Below the pieces are notes generated by a model. It searched no databases. It was not told the origin of the DNA and saw only the letters and a program-made list of their open reading frames with translations. From the NCBI RefSeq assembly GCF_044647545.1, contig NZ_CP172818.1: a DNA stretch of 64,000 nt; one strand, given 5' to 3'. Positions 14,048 through 48,054 of this stretch are shown piece after piece; positions within the stretch are counted from its first letter, which is position 1, and each line of letters begins with the position of its first letter. The stretch is from Escherichia coli. GTDB taxonomy: Bacteria; Pseudomonadota; Gammaproteobacteria; Enterobacterales; Enterobacteriaceae. The position numbers and the translations under genes were made by a program.

Positions 14048-14086
14048 CGGTTCAGACCTTGCCGAATATTCTCCAGCACCGTCTCC
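14048..14086 (-). repeat. Degenerate duplicate of the last ~13 codons of ycjD
   Basis: 35/39 identical to 14154..14192 (the ycjD 3' end); the last 23 nt are exact. Confidence 0.75.
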
Positions 14087-20086: not shown

Positions 20087-20117
20087 GCCGGATGCGGCGT
20101 GAACGCTTTATCCGGAC
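20087..20117. repeat. REP (repetitive extragenic palindrome) element
   Basis: GCCGGATGCGGCGTGAACGCTTTATCCGGAC matches the enterobacterial REP consensus. Confidence 0.8.
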
Positions 20118-29435: not shown

Positions 29436-29516
29436 TCTAATGCGCTGCGCTTATCAGGCCTGCAAACGACGTATTGATTATGTATGCCGGATAAAGCATT
29501 CACGCCGCATCCGGCA
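29436..29516. repeat. Pair of REP elements (BIME-like) between convergent puuE and pspF
   Basis: ATGCGCTGCGCTTATCAGGCCTGCA and ATGCCGGATAAAGCATTCACGCCGCATCCGGCA in opposite orientation. Confidence 0.8.
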
Positions 29517-29536: not shown

Positions 29537-30514
29537 CTAAATCTGGTGCTTTTTCAACAACGCGCGGAACTGATGATAGGTTAACCCCAGCAATTCAGCT
29601 GCGCGCTTCTGGTTATATTTCCCTTGTTGCAAACTGAGTTGCAGCAACTCTTTTTCCTGCTGCATCTGAAACTCACGTAAATCCAGCGGCAGTGTTGGAA
29701 GCGAGGTGATTTCTGAAACGGCGATAGCGTCTTCAGGCGGACGCCGTTTAAAGGGATCAATAATGATGTCATCAAGCGGATAATCGCTGGTGCCGTGGCG
29801 ATACACTGAACGTTCCACCACGTTTTTCAATTCACGAATATTTCCCGGCCAGCGATAATTCAGCAATGTTTCTCTGGCGCGCTCCGTAAAACCCGGGAAC
29901 AGAGGCAGCTTGATTTCCCGACACATCTGAATGGCAAAGTGTTCTGCCATCAGCATAATGTCGCTTTCGCGCTCGCGCAGGGGCGGCAGTTGCACTACAT
30001 CGAAAGCCAGCCGGTCGAGCAGGTCAGCGCGAAAAGTACCTTCATTGACCATCGCCGGGAGATCGGCATTCGTCGCGCATACCAACCGCACATTCACCTG
30101 CAATGGCTGGCTACCGCCAACGCGCTCCAGTTCACCGTACTCAATCACACGCAATAATTTTTCCTGCACCATCATCGGTGCCGTAGCGAGTTCATCAAGA
30201 AATAGCGTACCGCCATCGGCACGTTCAAATCTCCCAGGATGACGTTTTTGCGCACCGGTAAACGCCCCCGCTTCGTGACCAAACAGTTCGGAATCCAGCA
30301 GATTTTCATTTAACGCCGCGCAGTTAAGGGAAATAAACGGCCCTTGCCAACGGGAGGAGAGATAATGCAGACGGCTGGCAATCAGCTCTTTACCTGTGCC
30401 GCGCTCGCCGATGATGAGCACCGGTTTGTCCAGCGGTGCGAGATGCGAAACCTGTTCCAGCACTTCGAGAAAGCTGTTCGCCTCACCGAGTAAATTATCT
30501 TTGTATTCTGCCAT
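29537..30514 (-). CDS. pspF: Sigma-54-dependent activator PspF (AAA+ enhancer-binding protein)
   Basis: ORF 29537..30529; start at MAEYKDNLLGEANSF...; 325 aa; Walker A GERGTGKE and GAFTGA motif. Confidence 0.95.
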   Translation of the reverse strand: MAEYKDNLLGEANSFLEVLEQVSHLAPLDKPVLIIGERGTGKELIASRLHYLSSRWQGPFISLNCAALNENLLDSELFGHEAGAFTGAQKRHPGRFERADGGTLFLDELATAPMMVQEKLLRVIEYGELERVGGSQPLQVNVRLVCATNADLPAMVNEGTFRADLLDRLAFDVVQLPPLRERESDIMLMAEHFAIQMCREIKLPLFPGFTERARETLLNYRWPGNIRELKNVVERSVYRHGTSDYPLDDIIIDPFKRRPPEDAIAVSEITSLPTLPLDLREFQMQQEKELLQLSLQQGKYNQKRAAELLGLTYHQFRALLKKHQI

Positions 30515-30608
30515 GATGAAATTCGCCACTTGTTAGTGTAATTCGCTAATTCATCCTGGCATGTTGCTGTTGATTCTTCAATCAGATCTTTATAAATCAA
30601 AAAGATAA

Positions 30609-31349
<741 letters not shown>

Positions 31350-31402
31350 TAACATCCAGGCGGCGTCCGAACGCGCCGCCGCTCATCGTCTAAGGAGTCC
31401 TT

Positions 31403-31627
31403 ATGAGCGCGCTATTTCTGGCTATTCCGTTAACCATTTTTGTGCTGTTTGTTTTACCGATCTGGTTATGGCTGCATTACAGCAATCGTTCTGGTCGCAG
31501 TGAATTGTCGCAAAGTGAGCAGCAGCGATTAGCGCAACTGGCTGATGAAGCAAAACGGATGCGCGAACGTATTCAGGCGCTGGAATCCATTCTTGATGCA
31601 GAACATCCGAACTGGAGGGATCGCTAA
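31403..31627 (+). CDS. pspB: Phage shock protein B
   Basis: 74-aa single-TM ORF. Confidence 0.95.
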   Translation: MSALFLAIPLTIFVLFVLPIWLWLHYSNRSGRSELSQSEQQRLAQLADEAKRMRERIQALESILDAEHPNWRDR

Positions 31628-31986
31628 TGGCGGGCATTAATCTCAATAAAAAATTATGGCGTATTCCACAGCAGGGCATGGTCCGTGGCGTCTGCGCCGG
31701 GATTGCCAACTATTTTGATGTACCAGTAAAACTGGTGCGTATCCTGGTGGTGCTGTCGATTTTCTTCGGTCTGGCGCTGTTTACCCTGGTTGCTTACATC
31801 ATTTTGTCATTTGCGCTTGATCCAATGCCGGACAACATGGCCTTTGGTGAGCAGCTACCTTCCAGCAGTGAATTGCTGGATGAAGTCGACCGTGAACTGG
31901 CGGCAAGTGAAACGCGTTTACGCGAGATGGAACGTTATGTCACTTCCGATACTTTCACGTTACGTAGCCGTTTCCGTCAACTGTGA
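31627..31986 (+). CDS. pspC: Phage shock protein C
   Basis: 119-aa ORF; start overlaps the pspB stop. Confidence 0.95.
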
Positions 31987-31994
31987 GGAAAGTT

Positions 31995-32216
31995 ATGAAT
32001 ACTCGCTGGCAACAGGCCGGGCAAAAGGTGAAGCCTGGTTTCAAATTAGCAGGCAAGCTGGTACTTCTTACCGCACTGCGCTATGGCCCGGCGGGTGTGG
32101 CGGGCTGGGCGATAAAATCAGTTGCTCGCCGACCGCTGAAAATGTTGCTGGCTGTGGCGCTGGAACCGCTGTTAAGTCGGGCTGCCAATAAACTGGCGCA
32201 GCGTTATAAAAGGTGA
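31995..32216 (+). CDS. pspD: Phage shock protein D
   Basis: ORF 31983..32216; start at ATG 31995 after GAGGAA; 73 aa. Confidence 0.9.
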
Positions 32217-32290
32217 GGGGAGTTTCGCAAAAATTGTTAAAGCTAAGGCGTATTATGGATGGCAATTTTCATCCATAGAAGGACGCTTAC

Positions 32291-32605
32291 ATGTTTAAAA
32301 AAGGCTTACTTGCTCTGGCACTGGTGTTTTCACTGCCCGTTTTCGCCGCTGAACACTGGATCGATGTTCGTGTTCCTGAGCAGTATCAGCAAGAGCACGT
32401 TCAGGGGGCCATCAATATTCCCCTGAAGGAAGTGAAAGAGCGCATTGCCACCGCCGTTCCGGATAAAAACGACACCGTGAAAGTGTATTGCAATGCCGGA
32501 CGCCAGTCAGGGCAGGCAAAAGACATCCTTAGCGAGATGGGATATACCCACGTTGAGAACGCCGGCGGCCTGAAAGACATCGCAATGCCGAAGGTCAAAG
32601 GTTAA
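32291..32605 (+). CDS. pspE: Thiosulfate sulfurtransferase PspE (periplasmic rhodanese)
   Basis: 104-aa ORF with signal peptide and rhodanese active-site Cys (CNAGRQS). Confidence 0.95.
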   Translation: MFKKGLLALALVFSLPVFAAEHWIDVRVPEQYQQEHVQGAINIPLKEVKERIATAVPDKNDTVKVYCNAGRQSGQAKDILSEMGYTHVENAGGLKDIAMPKVKG

Positions 32606-32618
32606 AAGAATCCACCCT

Positions 32619-32647
32619 AAGCGGCGCTTATGCGCCGTTTACTTTTT
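32619..32647 (+). terminator. Intrinsic terminator after pspE
   Basis: AAGCGGCGC-TTAT-GCGCCGTTT hairpin followed by ACTTTTT. Confidence 0.6.
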
Positions 32648-32818
32648 CTGTCACACCTTATTTACATCCCCATAGATTATTTGCGTCAGCTCACAAATAC
32701 GCTTTTTCCCTGGTAAAAAATGATTTCCTGCGTGACTAAAACCCTTGTGCTCAATTGACAGTTTATTTTCTGCGGAGTAGTCTCTCGCTTCATGGGACCG
32801 CTACCACGGAAAGGCAAC

Positions 32819-34498
32819 ATGAAACAGAAAATTACGGATTACCTGGACGAAATCTACGGTGGAACATTTACCACAACTCATTTACAGAAACTTGTAACGC
32901 GTCTTGAGAGTGCGAAACGATTAATTACACTGCGACGTAAAAAACACTGGGATGAAAGTGATGTCGTGTTAATCACCTATGCCGATCAATTTCACAGTAA
33001 TGATTTAAAACCACTACCCACATTTAATCAGTTTTACCCTCAATGGCTGCAAAGCATTTTTTCACATGTTCATTTATTACCTTTTTATCCATGGTCATCT
33101 GATGATGGCTTTTCGGTAATTGATTATCAACAGGTCGCTAGTGAAGCGGGGGAGTGGCAGGATATTCAGCAACTCGGTGAATGCAGTCATTTAATGTTTG
33201 ATTTTGTCTGCAACCATATGTCGGCAAAAAGTGAATGGTTTAAAAACTATTTACAACAGCAGCCAGGTTTTGAAGATTTTTTTATTGCCGTTGACCCGCA
33301 AACCGATCTCAGCGTCGTCACTCGCCCGCGTGCGTTACCGTTATTAACGCCATTCCAGATGCGCGATCATTCAACGCGCCATTTATGGACCACCTTTAGT
33401 GACGATCAAATTGACCTGAATTACCGTAGCCCTGAAGTGTTACTGGCGATGGTGGATGTATTGCTGTGCTACCTGGAAAAGGGCGCAGAATATGTCCGTC
33501 TGGATGCCGTTGGCTTTATGTGGAAAGAGCCGGGAACAAGCTGCATCCATCTGGAAAAAACACATCTGATTATCAAACTGTTACGGTCGATTATTGATGA
33601 CGTAGCACCAGGTACAGTGATCATTACCGAGACCAATGTTCCGCACAGAGACAACATTGCTTACTTTGGCAACGGTGATGACGAAGCGCATATGGTGTAC
33701 CAGTTCTCGCTGCCGCCGCTGGTGCTGCATGCGGTGCAAAAACAGAACGTTGAGGCGCTTTGTGCGTGGGCGCAAAACCTGACACTACCTTCCAGCAACA
33801 CCACCTGGTTTAACTTCCTCGCCTCTCACGATGGCATCGGGCTTAACCCACTGCGTGGCTTGCTACCCGAAAGCGAAATATTAGCGCTGGTCGAGGCATT
33901 ACAGCAGGAAGGGGCATTAGTTAACTGGAAAAATAATCCCGACGGTACGCGTAGCCCGTATGAAATGAATGTCACTTATATGGATGCGTTAAACCGCCGC
34001 GAGAGTAGCGATGAAGAACGTTGCGCCAGGTTTATCCTTGCCCATGCGATTTTGTTAAGTTTCCCCGGTGTGCCAGCGATATATATTCAAAGTATTCTGG
34101 GCTCGCGTAATGATTACGCAGGTGTCGAAAAACTGGAATATAACCGTGCGATTAACCGTAAAAAATATTACAGTGAAGAGATCACGACCGAACTGAACAA
34201 TAAAACGACGTTAAGGCACGCGGTATATCATGAATTGTCGCGACTAATTAAAATTCGTCGAAGTCATAACGAGTTTCATCCAGATAATGATTTTACCATC
34301 GACACGGTTAATTCATCCGTAATGTGTATTCAAAGAAGCAACGCGGATGGTAATTGTCTGACAGGATTGTTTAATGTCAGTGAAAATATTCAGCATATAA
34401 ATATTACTGGCCTGCACGGTCGGGATCTGATTAGTGAAGTTGATATAGTGGGTAATGAAATAACGCTGCGCCCCTGGCAGGTTATGTGGATTAAATAA
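32819..34498 (+). CDS. ycjM: GH13 glycoside phosphorylase YcjM (glucosylglycerate phosphorylase)
   Basis: ORF 32792..34498; start at MKQKITDYLDE...; 559 aa; sucrose-phosphorylase-like. Confidence 0.92.
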   Translation: MKQKITDYLDEIYGGTFTTTHLQKLVTRLESAKRLITLRRKKHWDESDVVLITYADQFHSNDLKPLPTFNQFYPQWLQSIFSHVHLLPFYPWSSDDGFSVIDYQQVASEAGEWQDIQQLGECSHLMFDFVCNHMSAKSEWFKNYLQQQPGFEDFFIAVDPQTDLSVVTRPRALPLLTPFQMRDHSTRHLWTTFSDDQIDLNYRSPEVLLAMVDVLLCYLEKGAEYVRLDAVGFMWKEPGTSCIHLEKTHLIIKLLRSIIDDVAPGTVIITETNVPHRDNIAYFGNGDDEAHMVYQFSLPPLVLHAVQKQNVEALCAWAQNLTLPSSNTTWFNFLASHDGIGLNPLRGLLPESEILALVEALQQEGALVNWKNNPDGTRSPYEMNVTYMDALNRRESSDEERCARFILAHAILLSFPGVPAIYIQSILGSRNDYAGVEKLEYNRAINRKKYYSEEITTELNNKTTLRHAVYHELSRLIKIRRSHNEFHPDNDFTIDTVNSSVMCIQRSNADGNCLTGLFNVSENIQHINITGLHGRDLISEVDIVGNEITLRPWQVMWIK

Positions 34499-34511
34499 AA
34501 AGGAACATCTC

Positions 34512-35804
34512 ATGATTAAATCAAAAATCGTGCTGTTATCAGCACTGGTTTCCTGCGCCCTGATTTCAGGTTGTAAAGAAGAAAATAAAACGAATGTCTC
34601 CATTGAGTTTATGCATTCTTCGGTGGAACAGGAACGCCAGGCGGTAATTAGTCAGTTAATTGCGCGTTTTGAAAAAGAAAACCCGGGCATCACCGTTAAA
34701 CAAGTGCCCGTGGAAGAAGACGCCTATAACACCAAAGTCATTACCCTTTCACGTAGTGGTTCGCTGCCGGAAGTGATCGAAACCAGCCATGACTACGCCA
34801 AAGTTATGGACAAAGAGCAGCTTATCGATCGCCTGGCGGTTGCCACGGTCATCAGCAACGTCGGTGAAGGCGCGTTCTACGATGGCGTTCTGCGGATTGT
34901 GCGCACCGAAGATGGTAGCGCATGGACCGGTGTTCCTGTCAGCGCCTGGATTGGCGGCATCTGGTATCGCAAAGATGTGCTGGCAAAAGCCGGGCTGGAT
35001 GAGCCGAAAAACTGGCAACAGTTGCTGGATGTCGCACAGAAACTGAACGATCCGGCGAATAAAAAATACGGTATTGCACTGCCGACGGCAGAAAGCGTGC
35101 TGACGGAGCAATCTTTCTCCCAGTTTGCGTTATCCAATCAGGCTAACGTCTTTAACGCCGAAGGCAAAATCACCCTTGATACCCCAGAGATGATGCAGGC
35201 GCTGACCTATTACCGCGACCTTGCTGCCAACACCATGCCGGGTTCTAACGACATTATGGAAGTGAAAGACGCCTTTATGAACGGCACCGCGCCGATGGCG
35301 ATTTACTCCACCTATATCCTTCCGGCTGTGATTAAAGAAGGCGACCCGAAAAATGTCGGTTTCGTGGTGCCAACCGAGAAAAACTCGGCGGTCTACGGCA
35401 TGTTGACCTCGCTAACCATTACCGCCGGGCAAAAGAGCGAAGAGACGGAGGCGGCGGAAAAATTTGTCACCTTTATGGAGCAGGCGGACAACATTGCCGA
35501 CTGGGTGATGATGTCGCCAGGCGCGGCGCTGCCGGTGAACAAAGCGGTTGTGACGACTGCCACCTGGAAAGATAACGACGTGATTAAGGCGCTGGGAGAC
35601 TTGCCGAATCAGTTGATTAGCGAACTGCCAAATATTCAGGTCTTTGGCGCAGTAGGGGATAAAAACTTTACCCGCATGGGCGATGTGACGGGGTCTGGCG
35701 TGGTGAGTTCAATGGTGCATAACGTCACCGTGGGGAAAGCCGATCTCCCTGGCACGCTGCAAGCGAGCCAGAAAAAGCTGGATGAACTGATCGAACAGCA
35801 CTAA
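34512..35804 (+). CDS. ycjN: ABC transporter periplasmic sugar-binding protein YcjN
   Basis: 430-aa ORF with lipoprotein-type signal (LISGC). Confidence 0.92.
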   Translation: MIKSKIVLLSALVSCALISGCKEENKTNVSIEFMHSSVEQERQAVISQLIARFEKENPGITVKQVPVEEDAYNTKVITLSRSGSLPEVIETSHDYAKVMDKEQLIDRLAVATVISNVGEGAFYDGVLRIVRTEDGSAWTGVPVSAWIGGIWYRKDVLAKAGLDEPKNWQQLLDVAQKLNDPANKKYGIALPTAESVLTEQSFSQFALSNQANVFNAEGKITLDTPEMMQALTYYRDLAANTMPGSNDIMEVKDAFMNGTAPMAIYSTYILPAVIKEGDPKNVGFVVPTEKNSAVYGMLTSLTITAGQKSEETEAAEKFVTFMEQADNIADWVMMSPGAALPVNKAVVTTATWKDNDVIKALGDLPNQLISELPNIQVFGAVGDKNFTRMGDVTGSGVVSSMVHNVTVGKADLPGTLQASQKKLDELIEQH

Positions 35805-35824
35805 ACCCAGGACAGGAATCCGCA

Positions 35825-36706
35825 ATGAACAGGCTTTTTTCAGGTCGTTCCGATATGCCTTTTGCACTGCTGCTTCTCGCGCCCAGCTTATTACTGCTGG
35901 GCGGTCTGGTGGCGTGGCCGATGGTGTCGAATATCGAAATCAGTTTTTTACGTCTGCCGCTCAATCCCAACATCGAGTCAACCTTTGTTGGGGTGAGTAA
36001 CTATGTGCGTATTCTCTCCGATCCCGGCTTCTGGCACTCGCTGTGGATGACGGTCTGGTATACCGCGCTGGTGGTGGCGGGCAGCACCGTGCTCGGGCTG
36101 GCCGTGGCGATGTTTTTCAACCGCGAGTTCCGCCTGCGCAAAACCGCGCGTTCGCTGGTGATCCTCTCCTACGTAACGCCGTCTATTTCGCTGGTGTTCG
36201 CCTGGAAATACATGTTCAACAACGGTTACGGCATTGTGAACTACCTCGGCGTCGATCTTCTGCATCTCTATGAGCAGGCACCGCTGTGGTTCGATAATCC
36301 GGGCAGTAGCTTTGTGCTGGTGGTGCTGTTCGCCATCTGGCGCTACTTCCCCTATGCCTTTATTTCGTTTCTGGCGATTTTGCAGACCATCGACAAATCG
36401 CTGTACGAAGCGGCAGAGATGGATGGCGCTAATGCCTGGCAACGGTTTCGTATCGTCACGCTGCCCGCGATTATGCCGGTCCTGGCGACGGTGGTGACCC
36501 TGCGCACCATCTGGATGTTCTACATGTTCGCGGATGTTTATCTGCTGACGACCAAGGTCGATATTCTCGGTGTCTATCTCTACAAAACCGCCTTTGCCTT
36601 TAATGACTTAGGGAAAGCGGCGGCGATCTCGGTGGTGCTCTTCATCATTATTTTCGCTGTCATTCTGCTGACCAGGAAACGGGTGAACCTCAATGGCAAC
36701 AAATAA
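35825..36706 (+). CDS. ycjO: ABC transporter permease YcjO (MalF-like)
   Basis: 293-aa polytopic membrane ORF. Confidence 0.92.
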   Translation: MNRLFSGRSDMPFALLLLAPSLLLLGGLVAWPMVSNIEISFLRLPLNPNIESTFVGVSNYVRILSDPGFWHSLWMTVWYTALVVAGSTVLGLAVAMFFNREFRLRKTARSLVILSYVTPSISLVFAWKYMFNNGYGIVNYLGVDLLHLYEQAPLWFDNPGSSFVLVVLFAIWRYFPYAFISFLAILQTIDKSLYEAAEMDGANAWQRFRIVTLPAIMPVLATVVTLRTIWMFYMFADVYLLTTKVDILGVYLYKTAFAFNDLGKAAAISVVLFIIIFAVILLTRKRVNLNGNK

Positions 36707-37535
36707 ACGCACACTCAGTCGCATCGGTTTTTACTGCGGGCTGGCGCTGTTTCTCATCATCACGCTGTTTCCGTTTTTTGTGATGCTGATGACCTCGTTC
36801 AAGAGCGCAAAAGAGGCGATCTCGCTGCATCCTACGCTGCTGCCGCAGCAGTGGACGCTGGAGCATTATGTCGACATTTTTAACCCGATGATTTTCCCGT
36901 TTGTCGATTATTTCCGTAACAGCATGGTGGTGTCGGTAGTTTCATCCGTGATAGCAGTATTTCTCGGCATTCTCGGGGCTTACGCGCTTTCCCGCCTGCG
37001 CTTTAAAGGGCGAATGACCATCAACGCCAGCTTCTACACGGTGTACATGTTCTCCGGCATTTTGCTGGTGGTGCCGCTGTTCAAAATCATCACCGCGCTT
37101 GGCGTTTACGACACCGAGATGGCGCTGATCATCACCATGGTTACGCAAACCCTGCCTACCGCCGTGTTTATGCTGAAAAGCTACTTCGACACCATCCCCG
37201 ATGAAATCGAAGAAGCGGCGATGATGGATGGCCTCAACCGGCTGCAAATCATCTTCCGCATCACGGTACCGCTGGCGATGTCCGGGCTGATATCCGTATT
37301 CGTCTACTGCTTTATGGTGGCATGGAACGACTATCTGTTTGCGTCGATTTTCCTCTCCAGCGCCAGCAATTTCACCTTACCAGTCGGCCTGAACGCGCTG
37401 TTCAGTACGCCTGATTACATCTGGGGACGGATGATGGCGGCCTCGCTGGTGACCGCATTGCCGGTGGTGATTATGTATGCGCTTTCGGAGCGTTTTATTA
37501 AGAGTGGTTTGACCGCCGGTGGCGTGAAGGGCTAA
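36693..37535 (+). CDS. ycjP: ABC transporter permease YcjP (MalG-like)
   Basis: 280-aa polytopic membrane ORF; overlaps the ycjO stop. Confidence 0.92.
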   Translation: MATNKRTLSRIGFYCGLALFLIITLFPFFVMLMTSFKSAKEAISLHPTLLPQQWTLEHYVDIFNPMIFPFVDYFRNSMVVSVVSSVIAVFLGILGAYALSRLRFKGRMTINASFYTVYMFSGILLVVPLFKIITALGVYDTEMALIITMVTQTLPTAVFMLKSYFDTIPDEIEEAAMMDGLNRLQIIFRITVPLAMSGLISVFVYCFMVAWNDYLFASIFLSSASNFTLPVGLNALFSTPDYIWGRMMAASLVTALPVVIMYALSERFIKSGLTAGGVKG

Positions 37536-37565
37536 AGCGGCCAGTTTCTTGACAAGGAGTTTTAC

Positions 37566-38618
37566 ATGAAAAAGTTAGTAGCCACAGCACCGCGCGTTGC
37601 CGCGCTGGTTGAGTATGAAGATCGGGCGATTTTAGCCAATGAAGTGAAGATCCGCGTGCGTTTCGGCGCACCGAAACACGGAACGGAAGTGGTCGACTTC
37701 CGCGCCGCCAGCCCGTTTATCGATGAAGACTTTAACGGCGAGTGGCAGATGTTCACCCCGCGTCCCGCAGATGCGCCGCGCGGCATTGAGTTTGGCAAAT
37801 TCCAGCTTGGCAACATGGTGGTTGGCGACATTATCGAGTGCGGCAGCGACGTTACCGACTACGCGGTGGGCGACAGCGTATGCGGCTACGGCCCGCTCTC
37901 CGAGACGGTCATCATTAACGCAGTGAATAACTACAAGCTGCGCAAAATGCCGCAAGGCAGCTCCTGGAAAAACGCCGTCTGTTACGACCCGGCGCAGTTT
38001 GCCATGAGCGGCGTGCGCGATGCCAACGTACGCGTAGGGGATTTTGTCGTGGTGGTAGGGCTTGGCGCGATCGGTCAAATTGCCATCCAACTGGCAAAAC
38101 GCGCTGGCGCGTCGGTGGTAATTGGCGTCGATCCTATTACCCGTCGTTGTGAGATTGCCCGTCGCCACGGTGCGGATTTCTGTCTTAACCCCATTGGCGC
38201 TGACGTAGGTAAAGAGATCAAAACGCTGACCGGCAAGCAGGGTGCCGATGTGATTATCGAAACCAGCGGCTACGCCGACGCGCTGCAATCGGCACTTCGC
38301 GGCCTGGCATATGGCGGCACCATCTCGTATGTCGCATTTGCCAAACCATTTGCCGAAGGTTTCAACCTCGGACGTGAAGCCCATTTCAACAACGCCAAAA
38401 TTGTCTTCTCTCGTGCGTGCAGTGAACCGAACCCGGATTATCCGCGCTGGAGTCGCAAGCGTATTGAAGAAACCTGCTGGGAATTGCTGATGAACGGTTA
38501 TCTCAATTGTGAAGATTTGATCGACCCGGTGGTGACCTTTGCCAATAGCCCGGAAAGCTACATGCAGTATGTCGATCAGCATCCGGAACAGAGCATCAAA
38601 ATGGGCGTTACGTTTTAA
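37566..38618 (+). CDS. ycjQ: Zn-dependent sugar dehydrogenase YcjQ (MDR family)
   Basis: 350-aa ORF with Rossmann motif GLGAIGQ. Confidence 0.92.
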   Translation: MKKLVATAPRVAALVEYEDRAILANEVKIRVRFGAPKHGTEVVDFRAASPFIDEDFNGEWQMFTPRPADAPRGIEFGKFQLGNMVVGDIIECGSDVTDYAVGDSVCGYGPLSETVIINAVNNYKLRKMPQGSSWKNAVCYDPAQFAMSGVRDANVRVGDFVVVVGLGAIGQIAIQLAKRAGASVVIGVDPITRRCEIARRHGADFCLNPIGADVGKEIKTLTGKQGADVIIETSGYADALQSALRGLAYGGTISYVAFAKPFAEGFNLGREAHFNNAKIVFSRACSEPNPDYPRWSRKRIEETCWELLMNGYLNCEDLIDPVVTFANSPESYMQYVDQHPEQSIKMGVTF

Positions 38619-38635
38619 TTCAAAGGAATGAAAAA

Positions 38636-39424
38636 ATGAAAATAGGCACACAGAATCAGGCATTCTTTCCGGAAAATATTCTGGAGAAATTTCGTTATAT
38701 CAAAGAGATGGGCTTCGATGGTTTTGAGATTGACGGCAAACTGCTGGTCAACAACATCGAAGAAGTCAAAGCGGCAATCAAAGAAACCGGCTTACCGGTG
38801 ACCACCGCCTGCGGCGGCTATGACGGCTGGATTGGCGACTTTATCGAAGAGCGTCGTCTTAATGGCTTAAAGCAGATCGAACGCATTCTTGAAGCGCTGG
38901 CCGAAGTGGGCGGTAAAGGTATCGTCGTTCCTGCTGCATGGGGCATGTTTACCTTCCGTTTACCGCCGATGACCTCGCCGCGCAGCCTGGATGGCGACCG
39001 CAAAATGGTGAGTGATTCCCTGCGCGTACTGGAGCAGGTGGCAGCGCGTACCGGAACCGTGGTGTATCTCGAACCGTTAAACCGTTATCAGGATCACATG
39101 ATCAACACCCTCGCCGATGCCCGCCGTTACATCGTCGAAAACGATCTTAAACATGTACAGATTATCGGCGATTTCTATCACATGAATATCGAAGAAGATA
39201 ACCTGGCGCAGGCGTTGCACGACAACCGCGACTTGCTCGGTCATGTGCATATTGCCGATAACCATCGTTACCAGCCGGGCAGCGGCACCCTCGATTTCCA
39301 CGCGCTGTTTGAACAGCTGCGCGCCGATAACTATCAGGGTTATGTGGTGTATGAAGGGCGTATCCGGGCAGAAGATCCTGCCCAGGCGTACCGTGATTCT
39401 TTGGCCTGGGTGCGTACCTGCTAA
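38636..39424 (+). CDS. ycjR: Sugar phosphate isomerase/epimerase YcjR (xylose-isomerase-like TIM barrel)
   Basis: 262-aa ORF. Confidence 0.92.
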   Translation: MKIGTQNQAFFPENILEKFRYIKEMGFDGFEIDGKLLVNNIEEVKAAIKETGLPVTTACGGYDGWIGDFIEERRLNGLKQIERILEALAEVGGKGIVVPAAWGMFTFRLPPMTSPRSLDGDRKMVSDSLRVLEQVAARTGTVVYLEPLNRYQDHMINTLADARRYIVENDLKHVQIIGDFYHMNIEEDNLAQALHDNRDLLGHVHIADNHRYQPGSGTLDFHALFEQLRADNYQGYVVYEGRIRAEDPAQAYRDSLAWVRTC

Positions 39425-39433
39425 GAGGTCTTT

Positions 39434-40489
39434 GTGAAAAGTGCAATGACAAGCTCTCCGCTGCGAGTCGCGATCATAGGCGCGGGCCAGGTGGCGGATA
39501 AAGTTCATGCTTCGTACTACTGCACCCGCAACGATCTGGAACTGGTGGCTGTCTGTGACAGCCGCCTTTCCCAGGCGCAGGCGCTGGCAGAAAAATACGG
39601 GAATGCATCCGTGTGGGACGATCCGCAGGCCATGCTGCTGGCGGTGAAACCTGATGTGGTTAGCGTCTGCTCACCTAACCGTTTTCATTACGAACATACC
39701 CTGATGGCGCTGGAAGCGGGCTGCCATGTGATGTGCGAAAAACCGCCCGCCATGACGCCAGAACAAGCGCGGGAAATGTGCGATACCGCGCGCAAACAGG
39801 GCAAGGTGCTGGCCTACGACTTTCACCATCGTTTTGCACTCGATACGCAACAGCTGCGTGAACAGGTGACCAACGGCGTTTTGGGAGAGATTTACGTTAC
39901 CACCGCCCGCGCCCTGCGTCGCTGCGGTGTTCCCGGCTGGGGTGTCTTTACTAATAAAGAATTGCAGGGCGGCGGGCCGCTTATTGACATCGGCATTCAT
40001 ATGCTGGATGCGGCGATGTATGTACTGGGCTTTCCGGCGGTGAAAAGCGTGACCGCGCATAGCTTTCAAAAGATCGGAACGCAAAAGAGCTGCGGTCAAT
40101 TTGGCGAGTGGGACCCGGCAACCTACAGCGTCGAAGATTCGCTGTTTGGCACCATTGAATTTCATAACGGCGGCATTCTGTGGCTTGAGACCTCATTTGC
40201 ACTCAACATCCGCGAACAGTCGATTATGAACGTCAGCTTTTGTGGTGATAAAGCCGGGGCGACGCTGTTTCCAGCACATATCTACACCGATAACAACGGT
40301 GAGTTAATGACGCTGATGCAACGGGAAATGGCAGACGACAACCGTCATCTGCGCAGTATGGAAGCCTTTATCAACCACGTACAAGGTAAGCCCGTGATGA
40401 TAGCCGACGCCGAGCAGGGGTACATCATCCAGCAACTGGTGGCGGCGTTGTATCAATCCGCAGAAACAGGAACGCGTGTGGAATTATGA
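39434..40489 (+). CDS. ycjS: Gfo/Idh/MocA-family NAD-dependent oxidoreductase YcjS
   Basis: 351-aa ORF, GTG start; N-terminal Rossmann VAIIGAGQVA. Confidence 0.92.
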   Translation: MKSAMTSSPLRVAIIGAGQVADKVHASYYCTRNDLELVAVCDSRLSQAQALAEKYGNASVWDDPQAMLLAVKPDVVSVCSPNRFHYEHTLMALEAGCHVMCEKPPAMTPEQAREMCDTARKQGKVLAYDFHHRFALDTQQLREQVTNGVLGEIYVTTARALRRCGVPGWGVFTNKELQGGGPLIDIGIHMLDAAMYVLGFPAVKSVTAHSFQKIGTQKSCGQFGEWDPATYSVEDSLFGTIEFHNGGILWLETSFALNIREQSIMNVSFCGDKAGATLFPAHIYTDNNGELMTLMQREMADDNRHLRSMEAFINHVQGKPVMIADAEQGYIIQQLVAALYQSAETGTRVEL

Positions 40490-42752
40490 CCAGGCCAGTA
40501 ACGTTAACGGAACCCCATTTCAGCCAGCATACCCTGAACAAGTATGCTTCGCTGATGGCGCAGGGGAACGGCTATCTTGGGCTTCGCGCCAGCCATGAAG
40601 AAGATTATACGCGCCAGACACGCGGTATGTATCTGGCGGGGCTTTATCATCGCGCGGGGAAAATGACATCAACGAACTGGTGAACCTGCCTGACGTCATA
40701 GGGATGGAGATTACCTTGAATGGTGAACTTTTTGCGCTATCCCGCGAAACGTGGCAGCGCGAGCTTGACTTCGCCAGTGGTGAATTACGTCGCAATGTCG
40801 TCTGGTCTTCAGCCAGCGGCGCACGTTATGCCATTGCCAGCCGTCGCTTTGTTTCGGCAGAACAACTGCCGCTGATGGCGCTGGAAATCAGCATTACGCC
40901 GCTGGACGCTGACGCGTCAGTGCTGATTTCAACAGGCATTGACGCCACGCAAACCAACCACGGACGACAACATCTCGACGAAACCCAGGTGCGGGTGTTT
41001 GGTCAGCATTTGATGCAGGGGATCTATACCACTCAGGATGGACGCAGTGATGTGGCCATCAGCTGTTGCTGCCAGGTGAGCGGTGACGTGCAGCAATGCT
41101 ATACCGCCAAAGAGCGCCGCTTGCTGCAACATACCAGTGCACAACTACCTGCGGGCAAAACGCTGACGCTGCAAAAACGGGTGTGGATCGACTGGCGGGA
41201 CGACAGACACGTCGCTTTAGACGAGTGGGGTAGTGCATCGCTTCGTCAGCTTGAAATGTGTGTACAGCAGAGTTACGACCAACTTCTTGCAGCATCCACA
41301 GAAAACTGGCGTCAATGGTGGCAGAAACGTCGTATCACGGTAAACGGTGGCGATGCGCACGATCAGCAAGCGTTAGATTATGCGCTTTATCACCTACGCA
41401 TCATGACGCCTGCTCACGACGAGCGCAGCAGTATTGCGGCAAAAGGTTTGACCGGGGAAGGCTACAAAGGCCACGTTTTCTGGGATACGGAAGTATTTTT
41501 ACTGCCGTTCCATCTGTTTAGCGAACCGACGATTGCCAGAAGTTTACTGCGTTATCGCTGGCACAACTTGCCAGGCGCGCAGGAGAAAGCGCGACGCAAC
41601 GGCTGGCAGGGCGCGCTATTTCCGTGGGAAAGCGCGCGCAGCGGCGAAGAAGAGACGCCGGAATTTGCCGCCATTAACATTCGCACCGGGCTGCGGCAAA
41701 AAGTGGCCTCGGCGCAGGCGGAACATCATCTGGTCGCCGATATCGCCTGGGCGGTTGTTCAATACTGGCAGACCACGGGGGATGAAAGTTTCATTGCTCA
41801 TGAAGGCATGGCGCTACTTCTGGAAACTGCAAAGTTCTGGATTAGCCGCACGGTGAGGGTTAACGACCGTCTGGAAATTCATGATGTTATTGGGCCAGAC
41901 GAATATACCGAACATGTCAATAATAACGCCTTCACCAGCTATATGGCGTATTACAACGTCCAGCAGGCGCTGAACATCGCTCGTCAATTTGGCTGTAGCG
42001 ACGATGCGTTTATCCATCGCGCCGAAATGTTCCTTAAAGAACTGCGGCTGCCAGAAATTCAGCCCGACCGCGTTTTGCCGCAGGATGATTCGTTTATGGC
42101 GAAACCAGCGATTAATCTGGCGAAATACAAAGCGGCGGCGGGGAAGCAAACCATTCTGCTGGATTATTCACGCGCAGAAGTGAACGAGATGCAGATCCTC
42201 AAACAAGCTGATGTGGTGATGCTCAATTACATGCTGCCGGAGCAGTACTCAGCGGCATCGTGTCTTGCCAATCTGCAATTTTATGAACCGCGCACCATTC
42301 ACGACTCTTCACTGAGTAAAGCGATCCACGGCATTGTTGCCGCACGCTGTGGCCTGTTGGCGCAAAGTTATCAGTTCTGGCGGGAGGGGACTGAAATCGA
42401 TCTTGGTGCTGATCCGCATAGCTGTGATGACGGTATCCACGCTGCCGCAACTGGCGCAATCTGGTTGGGGGCGATTCAGGGTTTTGCCGGGGCGAGCGTG
42501 CGCAACGGTGAATTACATCTCAATCCGGCGTTACCTGAGCAGTGGCAACAGTTGTCTTTCCCTCTGTTCTGGCAGGGCTGTGAATTACAGGTCACTCTTG
42601 ACGCGCAGCGCATTGCGATTCGGACTTCTGCGCCAGTTTCACTGCGTTTGAACGGTCAGCTTATTTCAGTCTCTGAAGAATCTGTTTTCTGTTTAGGGGA
42701 TTTTATTTTGCCCTTCAATGGGACCGCTACCACGCATCAGGAGGGTGAATGA
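40486..42752 (+). pseudogene. ycjT: GH65 glycoside phosphorylase YcjT (kojibiose phosphorylase), interrupted by a 1-nt frameshift near 40656..40663
   Basis: ORFs 40486..40683 (65 aa) and 40680..42752 (690 aa) are two halves of one gene in frames +1 and +3; one extra base in the GGGGAAAA run would give a continuous ~755-aa protein. Confidence 0.8.
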
Positions 42753-43408
42753 AACTGCAAGGGGTAATTTTCGATCTGGATGGAGTAATCACCGATACCG
42801 CACATCTGCATTTCCAGGCGTGGCAGCAGATTGCCGCTGAAATTGGCATCAGCATTGATGCGCAGTTTAACGAATTCCTAAAAGGGATCAGCCGCGATGA
42901 GTCCCTGCGGCGAATTCTGCAGCACGGGGGTAAAGAGGGCGATTTTAACCCACAGGAACGGGCGCAACTGGCGTATCGCAAAAATCTGCTTTACGTCCAC
43001 TCACTGCGCGAACTGACGGTTAATGCTGTGCTGCCTGGCATTCACAATTTGCTGGTAGAGCTCCGAGCACAGCAGATTCCGGTTGGGCTGGCTTCTGTCT
43101 CCCTGAATGCGCCGACGATTTTAGCAGCGCTGGAGCTGCGCGAGTTTTTCACCTTCTGCGCGGACGCTTCCCAACTCAAAAATTCGAAACCGGACCCGGA
43201 AATCTTTCTCGCCGCCTGTGCAGGGCTGGGCGTGCCGCCACAGGCATGTATCGGCATTGAAGATGCGCAGGCGGGCATTGAAGCCATTAACGCCAGCGGT
43301 ATGCGCTCGGTGGGGATCGGCGCGGGCTTAACCGGGGCGCAATTGCTGTTGCCCTCAACGGAATCTCTCACATGGTCGCGGTTATCGGCCTTCTGGCAAA
43401 ACGTATAG
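42749..43408 (+). CDS. ycjU: Beta-phosphoglucomutase YcjU (HAD superfamily)
   Basis: 219-aa ORF with HAD motif I ([10 protein letters not shown]). Confidence 0.95.
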
Positions 43409-43421
43409 CAAAGGAATCAAC

Positions 43422-44504
43422 ATGGCTCAGCTTTCGTTACAACATATTCAAAAAATCTACGATAACCAGGTGCATGTGGTGAAGGACTTCAACCTGGAAA
43501 TTGCCGATAAAGAGTTCATTGTCTTTGTCGGTCCGTCAGGCTGCGGTAAATCGACTACGCTGCGCATGATTGCCGGGCTTGAGGAGATCAGCGGTGGCGA
43601 TCTGTTGATCGACGGCAAACGAATGAATGACGTTCCAGCCAAAGCGCGCAATATCGCGATGGTGTTCCAGAACTACGCGCTGTATCCGCATATGACGGTC
43701 TACGACAACATGGCGTTTGGCCTGAAGATGCAAAAAATCGCCAAAGAGGTGATTGATGAGCGGGTTAACTGGGCGGCGCAAATCCTCGGCCTGCGTGAGT
43801 ACCTGAAACGCAAGCCGGGCGCGCTTTCTGGCGGGCAACGCCAGCGTGTGGCGCTCGGACGGGCGATTGTGCGCGAAGCGGGCGTGTTTTTAATGGATGA
43901 ACCGCTCTCTAACCTTGATGCCAAGCTGCGCGTACAAATGCGCGCAGAGATCAGCAAGCTGCATCAGAAACTGAACACCACCATGATCTACGTGACCCAC
44001 GATCAGACCGAAGCGATGACCATGGCGACGCGGATTGTGATTATGAAGGATGGGATTGTTCAGCAGGTCGGTGCGCCGAAAACGGTTTATAACCAACCTG
44101 CGAATATGTTTGTTGCCGGATTTATTGGATCGCCTGCGATGAATTTTATTCGCGGCACGATCGATGGCGATAAATTCGTTACGGAAACGCTTAAATTAAC
44201 CATACCCGAAGAGAAATTAGCGGTTCTGAAAACACAGGAAAGTTTGCATAAGCCCATCGTGATGGGAATACGCCCGGAAGATATTCATCCGGACGCGCAA
44301 GAGGAAAATAACATTTCCGCCAAAATTAGCGTGGCAGAATTAACCGGTGCGGAATTTATGCTCTACACCACGGTTGGGGGGCACGAGTTAGTGGTCCGTG
44401 CTGGTGCGTTAAATGATTATCATGCAGGAGAAAATATCACTATTCATTTTGATATGACTAAATGTCATTTCTTTGATGCAGAAACGAAAATAGCAATTCG
44501 CTAA
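43422..44504 (+). CDS. ycjV: ABC transporter ATP-binding protein YcjV (MalK-like), full length
   Basis: 360-aa ORF with Walker A GPSGCGKST, signature LSGGQRQR and a C-terminal TOBE-like extension. Confidence 0.92.
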   Translation: MAQLSLQHIQKIYDNQVHVVKDFNLEIADKEFIVFVGPSGCGKSTTLRMIAGLEEISGGDLLIDGKRMNDVPAKARNIAMVFQNYALYPHMTVYDNMAFGLKMQKIAKEVIDERVNWAAQILGLREYLKRKPGALSGGQRQRVALGRAIVREAGVFLMDEPLSNLDAKLRVQMRAEISKLHQKLNTTMIYVTHDQTEAMTMATRIVIMKDGIVQQVGAPKTVYNQPANMFVAGFIGSPAMNFIRGTIDGDKFVTETLKLTIPEEKLAVLKTQESLHKPIVMGIRPEDIHPDAQEENNISAKISVAELTGAEFMLYTTVGGHELVVRAGALNDYHAGENITIHFDMTKCHFFDAETKIAIR

Positions 44505-44548
44505 ATACAGGGGGAAGGCATTCCCCCAGAATAATACAAGGAACAATA

Positions 44549-45454
44549 ATGAAAAAGTTATTACCCTGTACCGCACTGGTGATGTGTGCGGGAATGGCTT
44601 GCGCACAGGCCGAGGAAAAGAACGACTGGCACTTTAATATCGGCGCGATGTACGAAATAGAAAACGTCGAAGGTTATGGCGAAGATATGGATGGGCTCGC
44701 GGAGCCTTCTGTCTATTTTAATGCCGCCAACGGGCCGTGGAGAATTTCTCTGGCCTATTATCAGGAAGGGCCGGTAGATTATAGCGCGGGTAAACGTGGA
44801 ACGTGGTTTGATCGCCCGGAGCTGGAGGTACATTATCAGTTCCTCGAAAGCGATGATTTCAGTTTCGGTCTGACTGGTGGTTTCCGTAATTATGGTTATC
44901 ACTACGTTGATGAACCGGGTAAAGACACGGCGAATATGCAGCGTTGGAAAATCGCGCCAGACTGGGATGTGAAACTGACTGACGATTTACGTTTCAACGG
45001 TTGGTTATCGATGTATAAATTTGCCAACGATCTGAACACGACCGGTTACGCTGATACCCGAGTCGAAACGGAAACAGGTCTGCAATATACCTTCAACGAA
45101 ACGGTTGCTTTGCGAGTGAACTATTATCTCGAGCGCGGCTTCAATATGGACGACAGCCGCAATAACGGTGAGTTTTCCACGCAAGAAATTCGTGCCTATT
45201 TGCCGCTGACGCTCGGCAACCACTCGGTGACGCCGTATACGCGCATTGGGCTGGATCGCTGGAGTAACTGGGACTGGCTGGATGATATTGAACGTGAAGG
45301 CCATGATTTTAACCGTGTGGGGTTATTTTACGGTTATGATTTCCAGAATGGTCTTTCCGTTTCGCTGGAATACGCGTTTGAGTGGCAGGATCACGACGAA
45401 GGCGACAGCGATAAATTCCATTATGCAGGTGTCGGCGTAAATTACTCGTTCTGA
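44549..45454 (+). CDS. ompG: Outer-membrane porin OmpG
   Basis: 301-aa ORF with signal peptide and beta-barrel terminal (VNYSF). Confidence 0.95.
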   Translation: MKKLLPCTALVMCAGMACAQAEEKNDWHFNIGAMYEIENVEGYGEDMDGLAEPSVYFNAANGPWRISLAYYQEGPVDYSAGKRGTWFDRPELEVHYQFLESDDFSFGLTGGFRNYGYHYVDEPGKDTANMQRWKIAPDWDVKLTDDLRFNGWLSMYKFANDLNTTGYADTRVETETGLQYTFNETVALRVNYYLERGFNMDDSRNNGEFSTQEIRAYLPLTLGNHSVTPYTRIGLDRWSNWDWLDDIEREGHDFNRVGLFYGYDFQNGLSVSLEYAFEWQDHDEGDSDKFHYAGVGVNYSF

Positions 45455-45467
45455 TAATGGGTTAAAT

Positions 45468-45498
45468 TGCCGGATGCGGCGCGAGCGCTAAATCGGCA
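45468..45498. repeat. REP-like palindromic element between convergent ompG and ycjW
   Basis: TGCCGGATGCGGCGCGAGCGCTAAATCGGCA resembles the REP consensus. Confidence 0.45.
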
Positions 45499-45503
45499 TA
45501 CAT

Positions 45504-46502
45504 TTATTTCAACGACATATGCGTAGCAACGGTAATATTTTGTGGTGACGGTTTTCCGGCAATTAGCTGGAATAATAACTCGCAGCTTTGTTGACCTAAC
45601 TCCTGCGTCGGAACATCGATGCCGCCTGGTGCAGGCGTTAATATAAACGACAGCGTTTCATTACTATAACCCACCACCGCTAACTGCTGCGGAATAGCAA
45701 TGTTTTTCTCTGCCGCCGCACGATAAATACTCATTAATTTCAGGCTGTCAGTAGCAAACACTGCCTCAGGCAACGGTGACTGGCTTAATAATTCCCGTGC
45801 GGCTTGCAAGGCTGTTTCATGGGTATAACCGCCGTCAACAATCCATTCATCACGCACTGCAATATTATGCGTAGCCAGGCTTTGCTTATAACCATTTACC
45901 CGATCCACTGAAACATGAACATCAAGCGGCGCATGCAGGCAGGCAATATTCTTATGCCCGCTTTCAATTAACGCATTGGTCAGCGCAATACTGTCGCCAT
46001 AATTATCGGTATCGACGGAATAAACATGGCTGTATTGACCTTCAACTTTGCCAATTACCACTACCGGGATCTCGTATTTGTCGAGTTGTGCAAAGAAGGA
46101 TTCATCGGCAGGCGAACTTAGCATAATAATGCCTTTAATCATTTTCTGCTTAATTTTGCTTTCGCATTTTTGCAGATCTTCTGCCGGATTGTGCGACGTT
46201 TGTAATATCACGTCGAAACCTTCTTCTTCCGCTTTGGCGGTGATGGCATGCAAAACTTCAGAGAAAAACGGATTACCCGCCGTAGTTTTGGTCGAACGGG
46301 TAGAAATCACCATAATGGCATCAAAACCCGAAGAGGTCAGCGCGCGTGCCAGCTTGTTTGGTTGATACTGTAATTCTTCAATGGCCCGTAACACTTTTTC
46401 GCGCGCTTCCGGGGAGATATTGGTTTGCTTATTCAGCACGCGTGATACGGTGGATTTTGATACGCCTGCAACCCTGGCAATATCATAAATAGTAGGGGAC
46501 AT
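45504..46502 (-). CDS. ycjW: LacI-family transcriptional regulator YcjW
   Basis: 332-aa ORF; N-terminal HTH ([21 protein letters not shown]). Confidence 0.93.
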
Positions 46503-46576
46503 AGGTCAGGAACTCCGTCCGAACGTGAATGTTGCACATCTTATGGAGTTCGCCCGTCGATGACAACACGGGCAGT

Positions 46577-46603
46577 TGATAATCAATGGCCTGGCCCCCA
46601 CAT
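46577..46603 (+). promoter_or_regulatory. Candidate sigma-32 (heat-shock) promoter of ycjX-ycjF
   Basis: TTGATA-N13-CCCCACAT resembles the sigma-32 consensus TTGAAA-N13-15-CCCCATNT, about 55 nt upstream of the ycjX ATG. Confidence 0.55.
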
Positions 46604-46656
46604 TCATATTCTTACGAATGATTTTTTTCTGGTCTTCAGAGCAGCACAGGACAGCA

Positions 46657-48054
46657 ATGAAGCGACTTAAAAATGAACTTAATGCGCTGGTGAATCGGGG
46701 TGTCGACAGACATCTGCGCCTCGCCGTAACCGGACTTAGCCGCAGCGGCAAAACGGCGTTTATCACTGCGATGGTCAATCAGTTGCTCAATATTCACGCC
46801 GGAGCAAGGTTGCCGCTGTTAAGCGCGGTGCGTGAAGAACGGCTGCTGGGCGTAAAACGCATTCCCCAGCGTGACTTTGGCATTCCGCGCTTCACCTATG
46901 ATGAAGGGCTGGCGCAGTTATATGGCGATCCACCCGCCTGGCCAACGCCAACGCGCGGCGTCAGCGAAATTCGCCTGGCGCTACGTTTTAAATCGAACGA
47001 TTCGCTGCTACGCCACTTTAAGGATACCTCCACGCTGTATCTGGAGATTGTGGATTATCCCGGCGAATGGTTGCTCGACCTGCCGATGCTGGCGCAGGAC
47101 TATTTAAGCTGGTCGCGCCAGATGACGGGCTTACTTAATGGTCAGCGCGGCGAATGGTCGGCGAAATGGCGAATGATGTGCGAAGGGCTGGACCCGCTAG
47201 CGCCTGCCGACGAAAACCGGCTGGCAGACATTGCCGCCGCGTGGACCGATTATCTCCACCACTGTAAACAGCAGGGGCTGCACTTTATTCAGCCTGGGCG
47301 CTTTGTCTTGCCGGGAGATATGGCAGGTGCGCCCGCGCTGCAATTCTTCCCGTGGCCAGATGTTGATGCCTGGGGCGAGTCCAAACTGGCGCAGGCCGAT
47401 AAGCACACCAATGCCGGAATGTTGCGCGAGCGGTTTAATTATTACTGCGAGAAAGTGGTGAAGGGGTTCTATAAGAATCATTTTCTGCGCTTTGACCGCC
47501 AGATTGTGCTGGTGGACTGCCTGCAACCTCTCAACAGTGGGCCACAGGCATTTAATGATATGCGTCTGGCGCTGACGCAACTGATGCAAAGTTTTCACTA
47601 CGGGCAGCGAACCCTGTTCCGGCGTTTGTTTTCACCGGTTATCGATAAGCTATTGTTTGCTGCCACTAAAGCAGACCATGTGACCATCGATCAGCACGCC
47701 AATATGGTTTCATTACTGCAACAACTGATTCAGGATGCCTGGCAAAATGCGGCGTTCGAAGGGATCAGCATGGACTGCCTGGGGCTGGCGTCAGTTCAGG
47801 CGACCACCAGCGGCATTATTGATGTTAACGGTGAGAAAATCCCGGCGCTGCGCGGTAATCGACTCAGCGATGGCGCACCGCTCACTGTTTATCCTGGCGA
47901 AGTTCCCGCTCGTTTGCCCGGTCAGGCGTTCTGGGATAAGCAAGGCTTCCAGTTTGAGGCGTTTCGTCCGCAGGTGATGGATGTTGACAAACCGCTGCCG
48001 CATATTCGCCTTGATGCTGCGCTGGAATTTTTAATAGGAGATAAATTGCGATGA
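46657..48054 (+). CDS. ycjX: YcjX, P-loop NTPase (DUF463), function unknown
   Basis: ORF 46576..48054; start at internal ATG ([15 protein letters not shown]...) giving 465 aa; Walker A GLSRSGKT. Confidence 0.9.

Follow-up and report, generated by a model that had tools for sequence, protein, structure and literature searches.

The analyzed stretch of DNA, called here the window, has a length of 64,000 nt and comes from Escherichia coli (contig NZ_CP172818.1). According to the RefSeq annotation of an identical region, it contains the genes pspABCDE, then the cluster ycjM-N-O-P-Q-R-S-T-U(pgmB)-V-ompG and, on the opposite strand, ycjW. Table 1 lists the genes and sites considered below. The hairpin situated after pspE delimits the ycjM transcription unit on its upstream side.

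Table 1. Features of the ycjM-ompG/ycjW locus, in window coordinates (strand '.' for sites given without orientation)
Feature	Position	Strand	Basis or remark
Terminator-like hairpin after pspE	32618..32641	+	10-pair stem with 6 GC pairs, then a T-run
-35 hexamer TTGACA, ycjM operon promoter	32755..32760	+	sequence; conserved across Enterobacterales
-10 hexamer TAGTCT, 17-nt spacer from -35	32778..32783	+	conserved across genera
YcjW operator O1, 18-bp dyad C-R-core-Y-G; core TGGGACCGCTACCA at 32793-32806	32791..32808	.	position, symmetry, EMSA probe, conservation
ycjM (glucosylglycerate phosphorylase), opens the repressed operon	32819..34498	+	RefSeq, ORF list
ycjT (GH65 kojibiose phosphorylase)	40486..42752	+	annotation; 1-nt deletion near 40660 in the window
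YcjW operator O2, core TGGGACCGCTACCA, intragenic in ycjT, ends 16 nt before the ycjU ATG	42719..42732	.	position, ChIP, conservation
ycjU / pgmB (beta-phosphoglucomutase), first gene 3′ of O2	42749..43408	+	annotation, ORF list
ycjV (ABC ATPase, intact) and ompG (porin), distal operon genes 3′ of O2	43422..45454	+	annotation, ORF list
ycjW, LacI/GalR-family repressor	45504..46502	-	annotation, NCBIfam matches

The copy of ycjT present in the window lacks one nucleotide of an A-run (positions 40655-40665: GGGG-AAAATG versus GGGGAAAAATG in the closest genome). This deletion shifts the frame of a 755-aa kojibiose phosphorylase; the longest ORF left spans positions 40680-42752 (690 aa). An 81-nt stretch carrying the deletion had a 100% match in none of the 5,426 complete E. 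coli genomes; the frameshift is a private pseudogenisation or else an error in the sequence. As for ycjV (43422-44504), it is an intact 360-aa ORF in the window, whereas the K-12 MG1655 annotation has it as a pseudogene in two parts, ycjV and ymjB.

A sequence-only reading of the window had pointed to an exact 17-nt repeat, ATGGGACCGCTACCACG, situated upstream of both ycjM and ycjU. An exact search of both strands bore this out: the repeat is present at 32792-32808 and 42718-42734, both copies being in the + strand. Also as described, the 3′-end of the first copy is 10 nt 5′ of the ycjM ATG (32819) and the 3′-end of the second copy is 14 nt 5′ of the ycjU ATG (42749), within the 3′ coding end of ycjT. 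No further copies with three or fewer mismatches were present on either strand of the window. The expected chance count for this search was 0.11, and two or more copies were seen in none of the 100 shuffled sequences.

Only two exact direct repeats of at least 17 nt exist in the window, the ATGGGACCGCTACCACG pair being one of them. The other is the 23-mer GAATATTCTCCAGCACCGTCTCC, with copies 106 nt apart (14064-14086 and 14170-14192), each preceded by similar sequence (CGGTTCAG...). Among inverted repeats, an exact 17-mer pair, GCCGGATGCGGCGTGAA, occupies positions 20087-20103 and 29499-29515; we take it to resemble the E. coli REP (repetitive extragenic palindrome) element.

The ATG that opens the first 17-mer (32792) shares the reading frame of the annotated ycjM ATG, with no intervening stop, and the listed ORF begins at 32792. 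An ATG or GTG is present at the same triplet in other genera; however, indels vary its spacing to the true ycjM start and a stop codon sometimes intervenes, thus there is no conserved N-terminal extension of ycjM.

The conserved unit is shorter than the repeat itself, namely the 14-mer core TGGGACCGCTACCA. The strain comparison was made between positions 1380118-1380140 of the K-12 MG1655 genome (NC_000913.3; locus L081) and positions 42719-42741 of the window. Site 2 of K-12 reads ...TACCAAACAT, and the exact repeat has a length of 15 nt there versus 17 nt in this strain; the core of site 2 is followed by AA in K-12 (ACC AAA, T-K) versus CG in the window (ACC ACG, T-T). As the 3′ flank of site 2 in K-12 is AA and not CG, the 14-mer is the functional unit in K-12. 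The identity beyond the 14-mer in this strain is explained by conservation of the C-R and Y-G flanks, both of which are kept at site 1.

The core consists of the halves TGGGACC and GCTACCA; 10 of its 14 positions are self-complementary, with CG in the center. The 10 symmetric positions, written as the pattern TGG.A.CG.T.CCA, are common to the 141 sites collected in the survey of orthologous loci described below, and a perfect palindromic version, TGGGAGCGCTCCCA, is found in Chimaeribacter. The dyad of the window is imperfect: an inverted-repeat finder with a 6-nt seed produced no match at the motif, and the symmetry was checked by hand. A CG-centred dyad is the standard shape of a LacI-family operator (PMC6599011), and such an operator is expected to be a dyad of 14-20 bp with central CG, a form that the motif has.

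Further signs of a LacI-family operator concern the regulator. The gene of a cognate regulator, ycjW, belongs to the locus that carries the motif, and the two occur together across genomes; an ortholog of ycjW was seen in the motif-bearing locus wherever the fetched locus extended far enough. The YcjW protein has full-length NCBIfam matches to PurR, RbsR, CcpA and LacI-family models; as all these matches are below the equivalog cut-offs, YcjW is a distinct member of the LacI/GalR family. We compared ∼50 distinct YcjW orthologs drawn from Enterobacterales, Bacillaceae, Listeria and Paenibacillus. In these proteins the recognition helix and the hinge YQP.KLARAL were invariant or nearly so, even at 52-65% overall identity. 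The outer operator positions were invariant in the same loci; the DNA-reading head and the operator are thus co-conserved.

The YcjW operator described in K-12 has the same 14-bp sequence in the same two positions, one 5′ of the ycjM start and the other where ycjT adjoins ycjU. In ChIP-seq data, YcjW enrichment was highest in two regions, upstream of the ycjM start and at ycjT/ycjU, with the 14-bp motif underlying the peaks (Luhachack et al. 2019, Nat Commun 10:2868, PMC6599011). In the EMSA experiments of the same work a 50-bp ycjM probe was shifted by YcjW; the oligonucleotide used, LL58, matches window positions 32775-32824 save one SNP and has the 14-mer at its center. The probes in that work were those of ycjM, narP and cyaA only; of these, the cyaA probe, with TGGTAACGTTCCCA, and the narP probe, with TGGTAGCGTTACCA, are the weaker ones. 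Deletion of ycjW led to derepression of the operon, including ycjM, ycjU and ompG, and the YcjW-DNA complex was dissociated by kojibiose, not by trehalose or sucrose (PMC6599011). As cited in PMC6599011, the YcjW motif was predicted and tested earlier by Zuo & Stormo 2014; YcjW is not named in the main text of Ravcheev 2014.

In the available part of the ChIP-exo study by Gao et al. (2021, NAR 49:9696, PMC8464067), where YcjW was modelled as a dimer, the peaks at ycjM (S/N 840) and ycjU (S/N 1665) were by far the strongest YcjW peaks listed. We converted the positions of the listed peaks under the assumption that the ChIP-exo table is in NC_000913.2 coordinates. The ycjU peak was then placed at ∼42711-42742, exactly on O2. 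The ycjM peak was placed at ∼32898-32935, ∼105 nt downstream of O1, and a ycjN peak (S/N 38) at ∼34577-34616, inside ycjN. No motif-like sequence with three or fewer mismatches was present at the converted ycjM and ycjN peaks, and the offset of the ycjM peak counts against the motif as the bound site there. A scan of positions 32000-47000 for extra sites, with up to three mismatches, gave a single match, at 43053-43066 inside ycjU. This sequence, TGGTAGAGCTCCGA, has two mismatches to the operator consensus TGGKASCGSTMCCA, one of them destroying the central CG; it is probably a chance match. The same scan revealed no operator at the ycjW promoter.

From these data we conclude that the repeated motif is almost certainly the YcjW operator, bound by the LacI/GalR-family repressor whose gene lies at the other end of the cluster. 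Evidence of in vivo binding at both sites, in vitro binding to the O1 probe, derepression upon ycjW deletion and release by kojibiose comes from the literature; the present analysis contributes the dyad symmetry, the geometry of the promoter, the co-variation of the two sites, and the conservation of the sites across species and of the reading head. The YcjW operator pair as such is an already published element, and the finding of the repeat adds little new to it. What the survey does add is the range of conservation, both the operator and the reading head of YcjW being kept from Enterobacterales to Bacillaceae and Listeria.

The survey covered 79 orthologous loci (1.64 Mb) fetched with YcjT as a probe. 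Among their sources were Escherichia, Citrobacter, Salmonella diarizonae, Enterobacter, Leclercia, Lelliottia, Buttiauxella, Atlantibacter, Siccibacter and Chimaeribacter; further loci were from Bacillaceae, Paenibacillus and Listeria. The degenerate core TGGNANCGNTNCCA had 141 matches in this set versus 1.56 expected. Conservation in orthologous ycjM-V clusters had been set as a test of the motif beforehand, and it was strongly passed: 95 matches were located just upstream of ycjM, in 67 of the 67 loci containing that region, each with a strict site. Of the rest, 37 were at the 3′-end of ycjT, while the other 9, all from Firmicute clusters with rearrangements, adjoined ycjW or the gene that opens the operon; no match was found elsewhere in the 79 loci.

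Two lineages are particularly informative about the nature of the motif. In Buttiauxella, site 2 is TGGGAGCGGTACCA and site 1 is its exact reverse complement, TGGTACCGCTCCCA; both sites have moved to the same variant, and the YcjT tail has changed from GTATT to GSGTT (site-2 peptide G-S-G-T). Since the two sites of Buttiauxella changed together, with one of them flipped to the other strand, the target is double-stranded DNA. In Bacillaceae we observed operator arrays with 2-5 copies, mostly TGGGAGCGGTACCA, between divergent ycjW and ycjM; the copies are mostly ∼33-55 bp apart, around positions 1800-2200 in each locus (loci L044, L046-L052, L054, L057, L058, L061, L062, L064, L065, L069 and L078). 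No operator copy was seen at the ycjT end in these Bacillaceae loci. In Firmicutes, the motifs are directly flanked by ycjW on one side and the operon on the other; Paenibacillus has a second site, which follows ycjT by ∼180-200 nt and precedes another gene set. By the Buttiauxella comparison, the DNA motif appears to dictate the tail peptide, the two sites evolve together and orientation is free; a site on double-stranded DNA that is bound by a protein behaves in this way, an RNA element does not.

The ycjM-T cluster, the regulator and the operator are common to Enterobacterales and Firmicutes (Bacillaceae, Listeria and Paenibacillus), with protein identity of 49-77% (loci L002-L080), while ycjV and ompG are additions found in Enterobacterales only. 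This pattern suggests that the complete regulon unit was horizontally transferred. Judged by sequence, the regulator-operator pair is conserved across phyla.

Two other explanations of the repeat had been considered at the outset. One of them is that the copies are a remnant of an old local duplication or, simply, a chance match. One could note that in this strain identity runs 3 nt beyond the 14-mer and that CTTC precedes both copies if one indel is allowed. However, a segmental duplication is expected to leave similarity in the flanks, and identity of the flanks was 18/60 on each side, the level of chance; the identity beyond the core also varies among E. coli strains, site 2 of K-12 being followed by AA, not CG. 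Moreover, both positions are maintained across genera whose YcjT proteins are 54-74% identical, with synonymous sites otherwise saturated. The earlier figure of ∼0.2 chance pairs was a fair estimate for the 17-mer taken alone; still, the number of motif matches in the survey, all of them in regulatory positions, makes chance untenable. We give next to no weight to duplication or chance.

The other explanation is that the motif acts in mRNA, as a translational or RNA-binding element in front of the Shine-Dalgarno sequences of ycjM and ycjU. The sequence-only reading was right in seeing the two copies as one shared functional cis-element; the kind of element it proposed did not hold, the motif being a DNA operator. 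Both copies would indeed be present in mRNA, 10-14 nt before the start codons, and in many species the 3′ edge of the operator abuts the Shine-Dalgarno sequence (ACCA-YGGAGG or YGGAAA). A cis-acting mRNA element should show strand-specific conservation and a conserved or favoured structure; neither was observed. The suggested check of structure in the 5′ regions showed that neither context folds better than shuffled sequences (z = 0.09, 0.18, -0.69 and -0.54; 41-81 nt folded), and each of the two is predicted to fold in its own way. A scan of positions 30000-48000 against Rfam (E ≤ 1) produced no match at either site, the sole match being a spurious snoRNA elsewhere. In Buttiauxella the strand flip of O1 with respect to O2 would make a different RNA; the operator is anywhere from 11 to 23 nt away from the ycjU start, depending on the locus; and dyad symmetry, as well as the multiple copies in the ycjW-ycjM intergenic region of Bacillaceae, also speaks against an RNA element. 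Finally, a DNA-binding protein for the motif is already known (PMC6599011, PMC8464067). An action at the RNA level is, therefore, very improbable.

Returning to the operator of YcjW, we consider the architecture of each site. Overlap with or adjacency to a promoter, one more sign of a LacI-family operator, was observed for O1 and was not observed for O2. The order of elements at site 1 in Enterobacterales is TTGACA, a 17-nt spacer, TAGTCT or TAGATT, 7-9 nt, C-R-TGGGACCGCTACCA-Y-G, GGAAA and the start codon. Specifically, the 50 distinct site-1 regions of Enterobacterales have TTGACA or TTGACT in the corresponding place, and TAGTCT or TAGATT recurs in the various genera, always equally far from the -35 element and 7-9 nt 5′ of the core; in the window the core of O1 follows the -10 hexamer after 9 nt. 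The mean promoter score at O1 was 9.3 of 12 versus 5.4 ± 1.0 at random ycjT positions. A strict sigma-70 scan did not report a promoter at O1 or O2; the promoter at O1 was revealed by cross-species alignment, and it was missed by the strict scan because its -10 element matches only 3 of 6 positions. The fixed promoter-operator geometry at O1 is a detail added by the comparative analysis.

Given this geometry, transcription would start near 32790, a position overlapped by O1. A YcjW dimer would recognize the 14-bp dyad TGGGACCGCTACCA, with half-sites fitting TGG-K-A-S-C around the central CG; when bound at O1 it should cover the transcription start along with the first transcribed bases and block RNA polymerase, as LacI does at lacO1. 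Since the operator covers the presumed start, a steric block of initiation is the natural reading, and repression at O1 could proceed by occlusion or by blocked promoter escape. Upon binding of kojibiose, YcjW is released and the operon is induced.

Site 2 has a different setting. In the K-12 operator papers it is described as located 'between ycjT and ycjU', while in the sequence analyzed here it is inside the ycjT coding sequence. The core of O2 is written in the codons GGG ACC GCT ACC (G-T-A-T) of the C-terminal tail of YcjT, a tail that is otherwise hypervariable in both sequence and length. To rank its conservation we used sliding windows over the whole codon alignment of ycjT, unconditioned on the motif, from 48 loci with YcjT 54-74% identical to that of E. 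coli. O2 was the most conserved 14-nt window of ycjT: it was identical in 28 of 48 distant loci, while the median window was identical in 0 and the 95th percentile was 3. The mean third-position entropy of ycjT was 1.44 bits in loci chosen for carrying the motif; synonymous sites are thus saturated. The conservation of site 2 has exceptions: in several lineages the site is one mismatch off, and in Chimaeribacter it is absent. In Atlantibacter the site is intergenic, between ycjT and ycjU.

No conserved -35/-10 pair was found upstream of O2, either by cross-species alignment or by the strict sigma-70 scan; the promoter score upstream of O2 was 6.0 versus a null of 5.4 ± 1.0. Being intragenic and having no promoter above background, O2 is an auxiliary or roadblock-type site. 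The same core sequence, 9.9 kb downstream of O1, is bound in vivo at least as strongly as O1, and O2 most likely serves as a second gate for ycjU-ycjV-ompG, by means of either a transcriptional roadblock or repression of a weak internal promoter. The function of O2 is not addressed in the available parts of Luhachack et al. 2019 and Gao et al. 2021.

Under the roadblock reading, YcjW bound at the end of ycjT would stop polymerases that escape O1 or read through, and would keep ycjU-ycjV-ompG, especially the large-channel porin OmpG, off until kojibiose is present. The intragenic location of O2 with no promoter elements upstream, as well as its strong conservation against the grain of the hypervariable protein tail, argues for a roadblock; also, O2 is the strongest in vivo peak among those listed in the available part of the ChIP-exo data (PMC8464067). 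All 33 loci with strict O2 have ompG, and the four loci without ompG lack strict O2; however, the four ompG-less loci represent just two independent lineages, so the correlation is a hint only. Looping between the sites over 9.9 kb is unlikely because YcjW, modelled as a dimer, has 332 aa and matches LacI-family profiles only up to the core; this, too, favors a roadblock. Roadblocks by LacI-family proteins are established: PurR acts in this way in purB, and CcpA does so at intragenic cre sites. What weakens the case is TATTTT at 42704-42709, 9 nt 5′ of the core, the spacing of the -10 element at O1, which leaves room for a weak internal promoter. We would give the roadblock slightly less than an even chance.

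One could speculate, instead, that O2 represses such a weak internal promoter for ycjU-ycjV-ompG, with geometry mirroring that of O1. The equal 9-nt distance from a -10-like element to the core at both sites would fit this, along with the conservation across genera of the AT-rich patch at -20 to -10 (GATTTTATTTT before O2, which includes TATTTT) and the intergenic location of the site in Atlantibacter. Some Bacillaceae transcribe ycjU together with ycjW from the operator-bearing divergent region, thus control of ycjU by its own operator may be ancestral. On the other hand, there is no -35 element, and the promoter score is indistinguishable from that of random ycjT positions. Moreover, the conserved D-F-I-L of YcjT is encoded within this AT-rich patch, whose conservation may thus stem from the protein; therefore, the evidence for an internal promoter is ambiguous, and we regard such a promoter as rather unlikely. 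A roadblock gate for ycjUV-ompG is somewhat more likely than an internal promoter.

A stronger version of the roadblock reading can be put forward tentatively, with the odds being rather against it: O2 may be an obligatory intragenic roadblock gate for ycjU-ycjV-ompG, perhaps keeping OmpG shut, and may dictate the YcjT tail (GTATT or GSGTT, depending on the operator variant). By the comparative analysis, O2 is a constraint at the DNA level that is imposed on a protein tail; if the intragenic gate is real, it would also be a clear-cut natural example of an operator that encodes such a tail.

The layout of O2 could be compared with those of the PurR box in purB and the CcpA cre sites inside ORFs, where a CG-centred dyad of 14-16 bp resides in a coding region and a dimeric LacI-family repressor bound to it blocks RNA polymerase during elongation; O2 fits this layout. 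Unlike those roadblocks, it occupies the final ycjT codons, where two genes meet, rather than an early part of a transcription unit.

Another parallel is the lac system. Both systems have a LacI-family repressor, a primary operator over the transcription start (presumably so in the ycj cluster), a second operator in the downstream coding sequence and a sugar that releases the repressor. The lacO2 site, inside lacZ, is 401 bp from lacO1 and acts via looping by the LacI tetramer. In the ycj cluster, by contrast, the sites are 9.9 kb apart and YcjW, with its 332 aa, was modelled as a dimer, so looping is unlikely; also, in the available ChIP-exo data O2 is as strong as O1 or stronger, a difference from the lac auxiliary operator.
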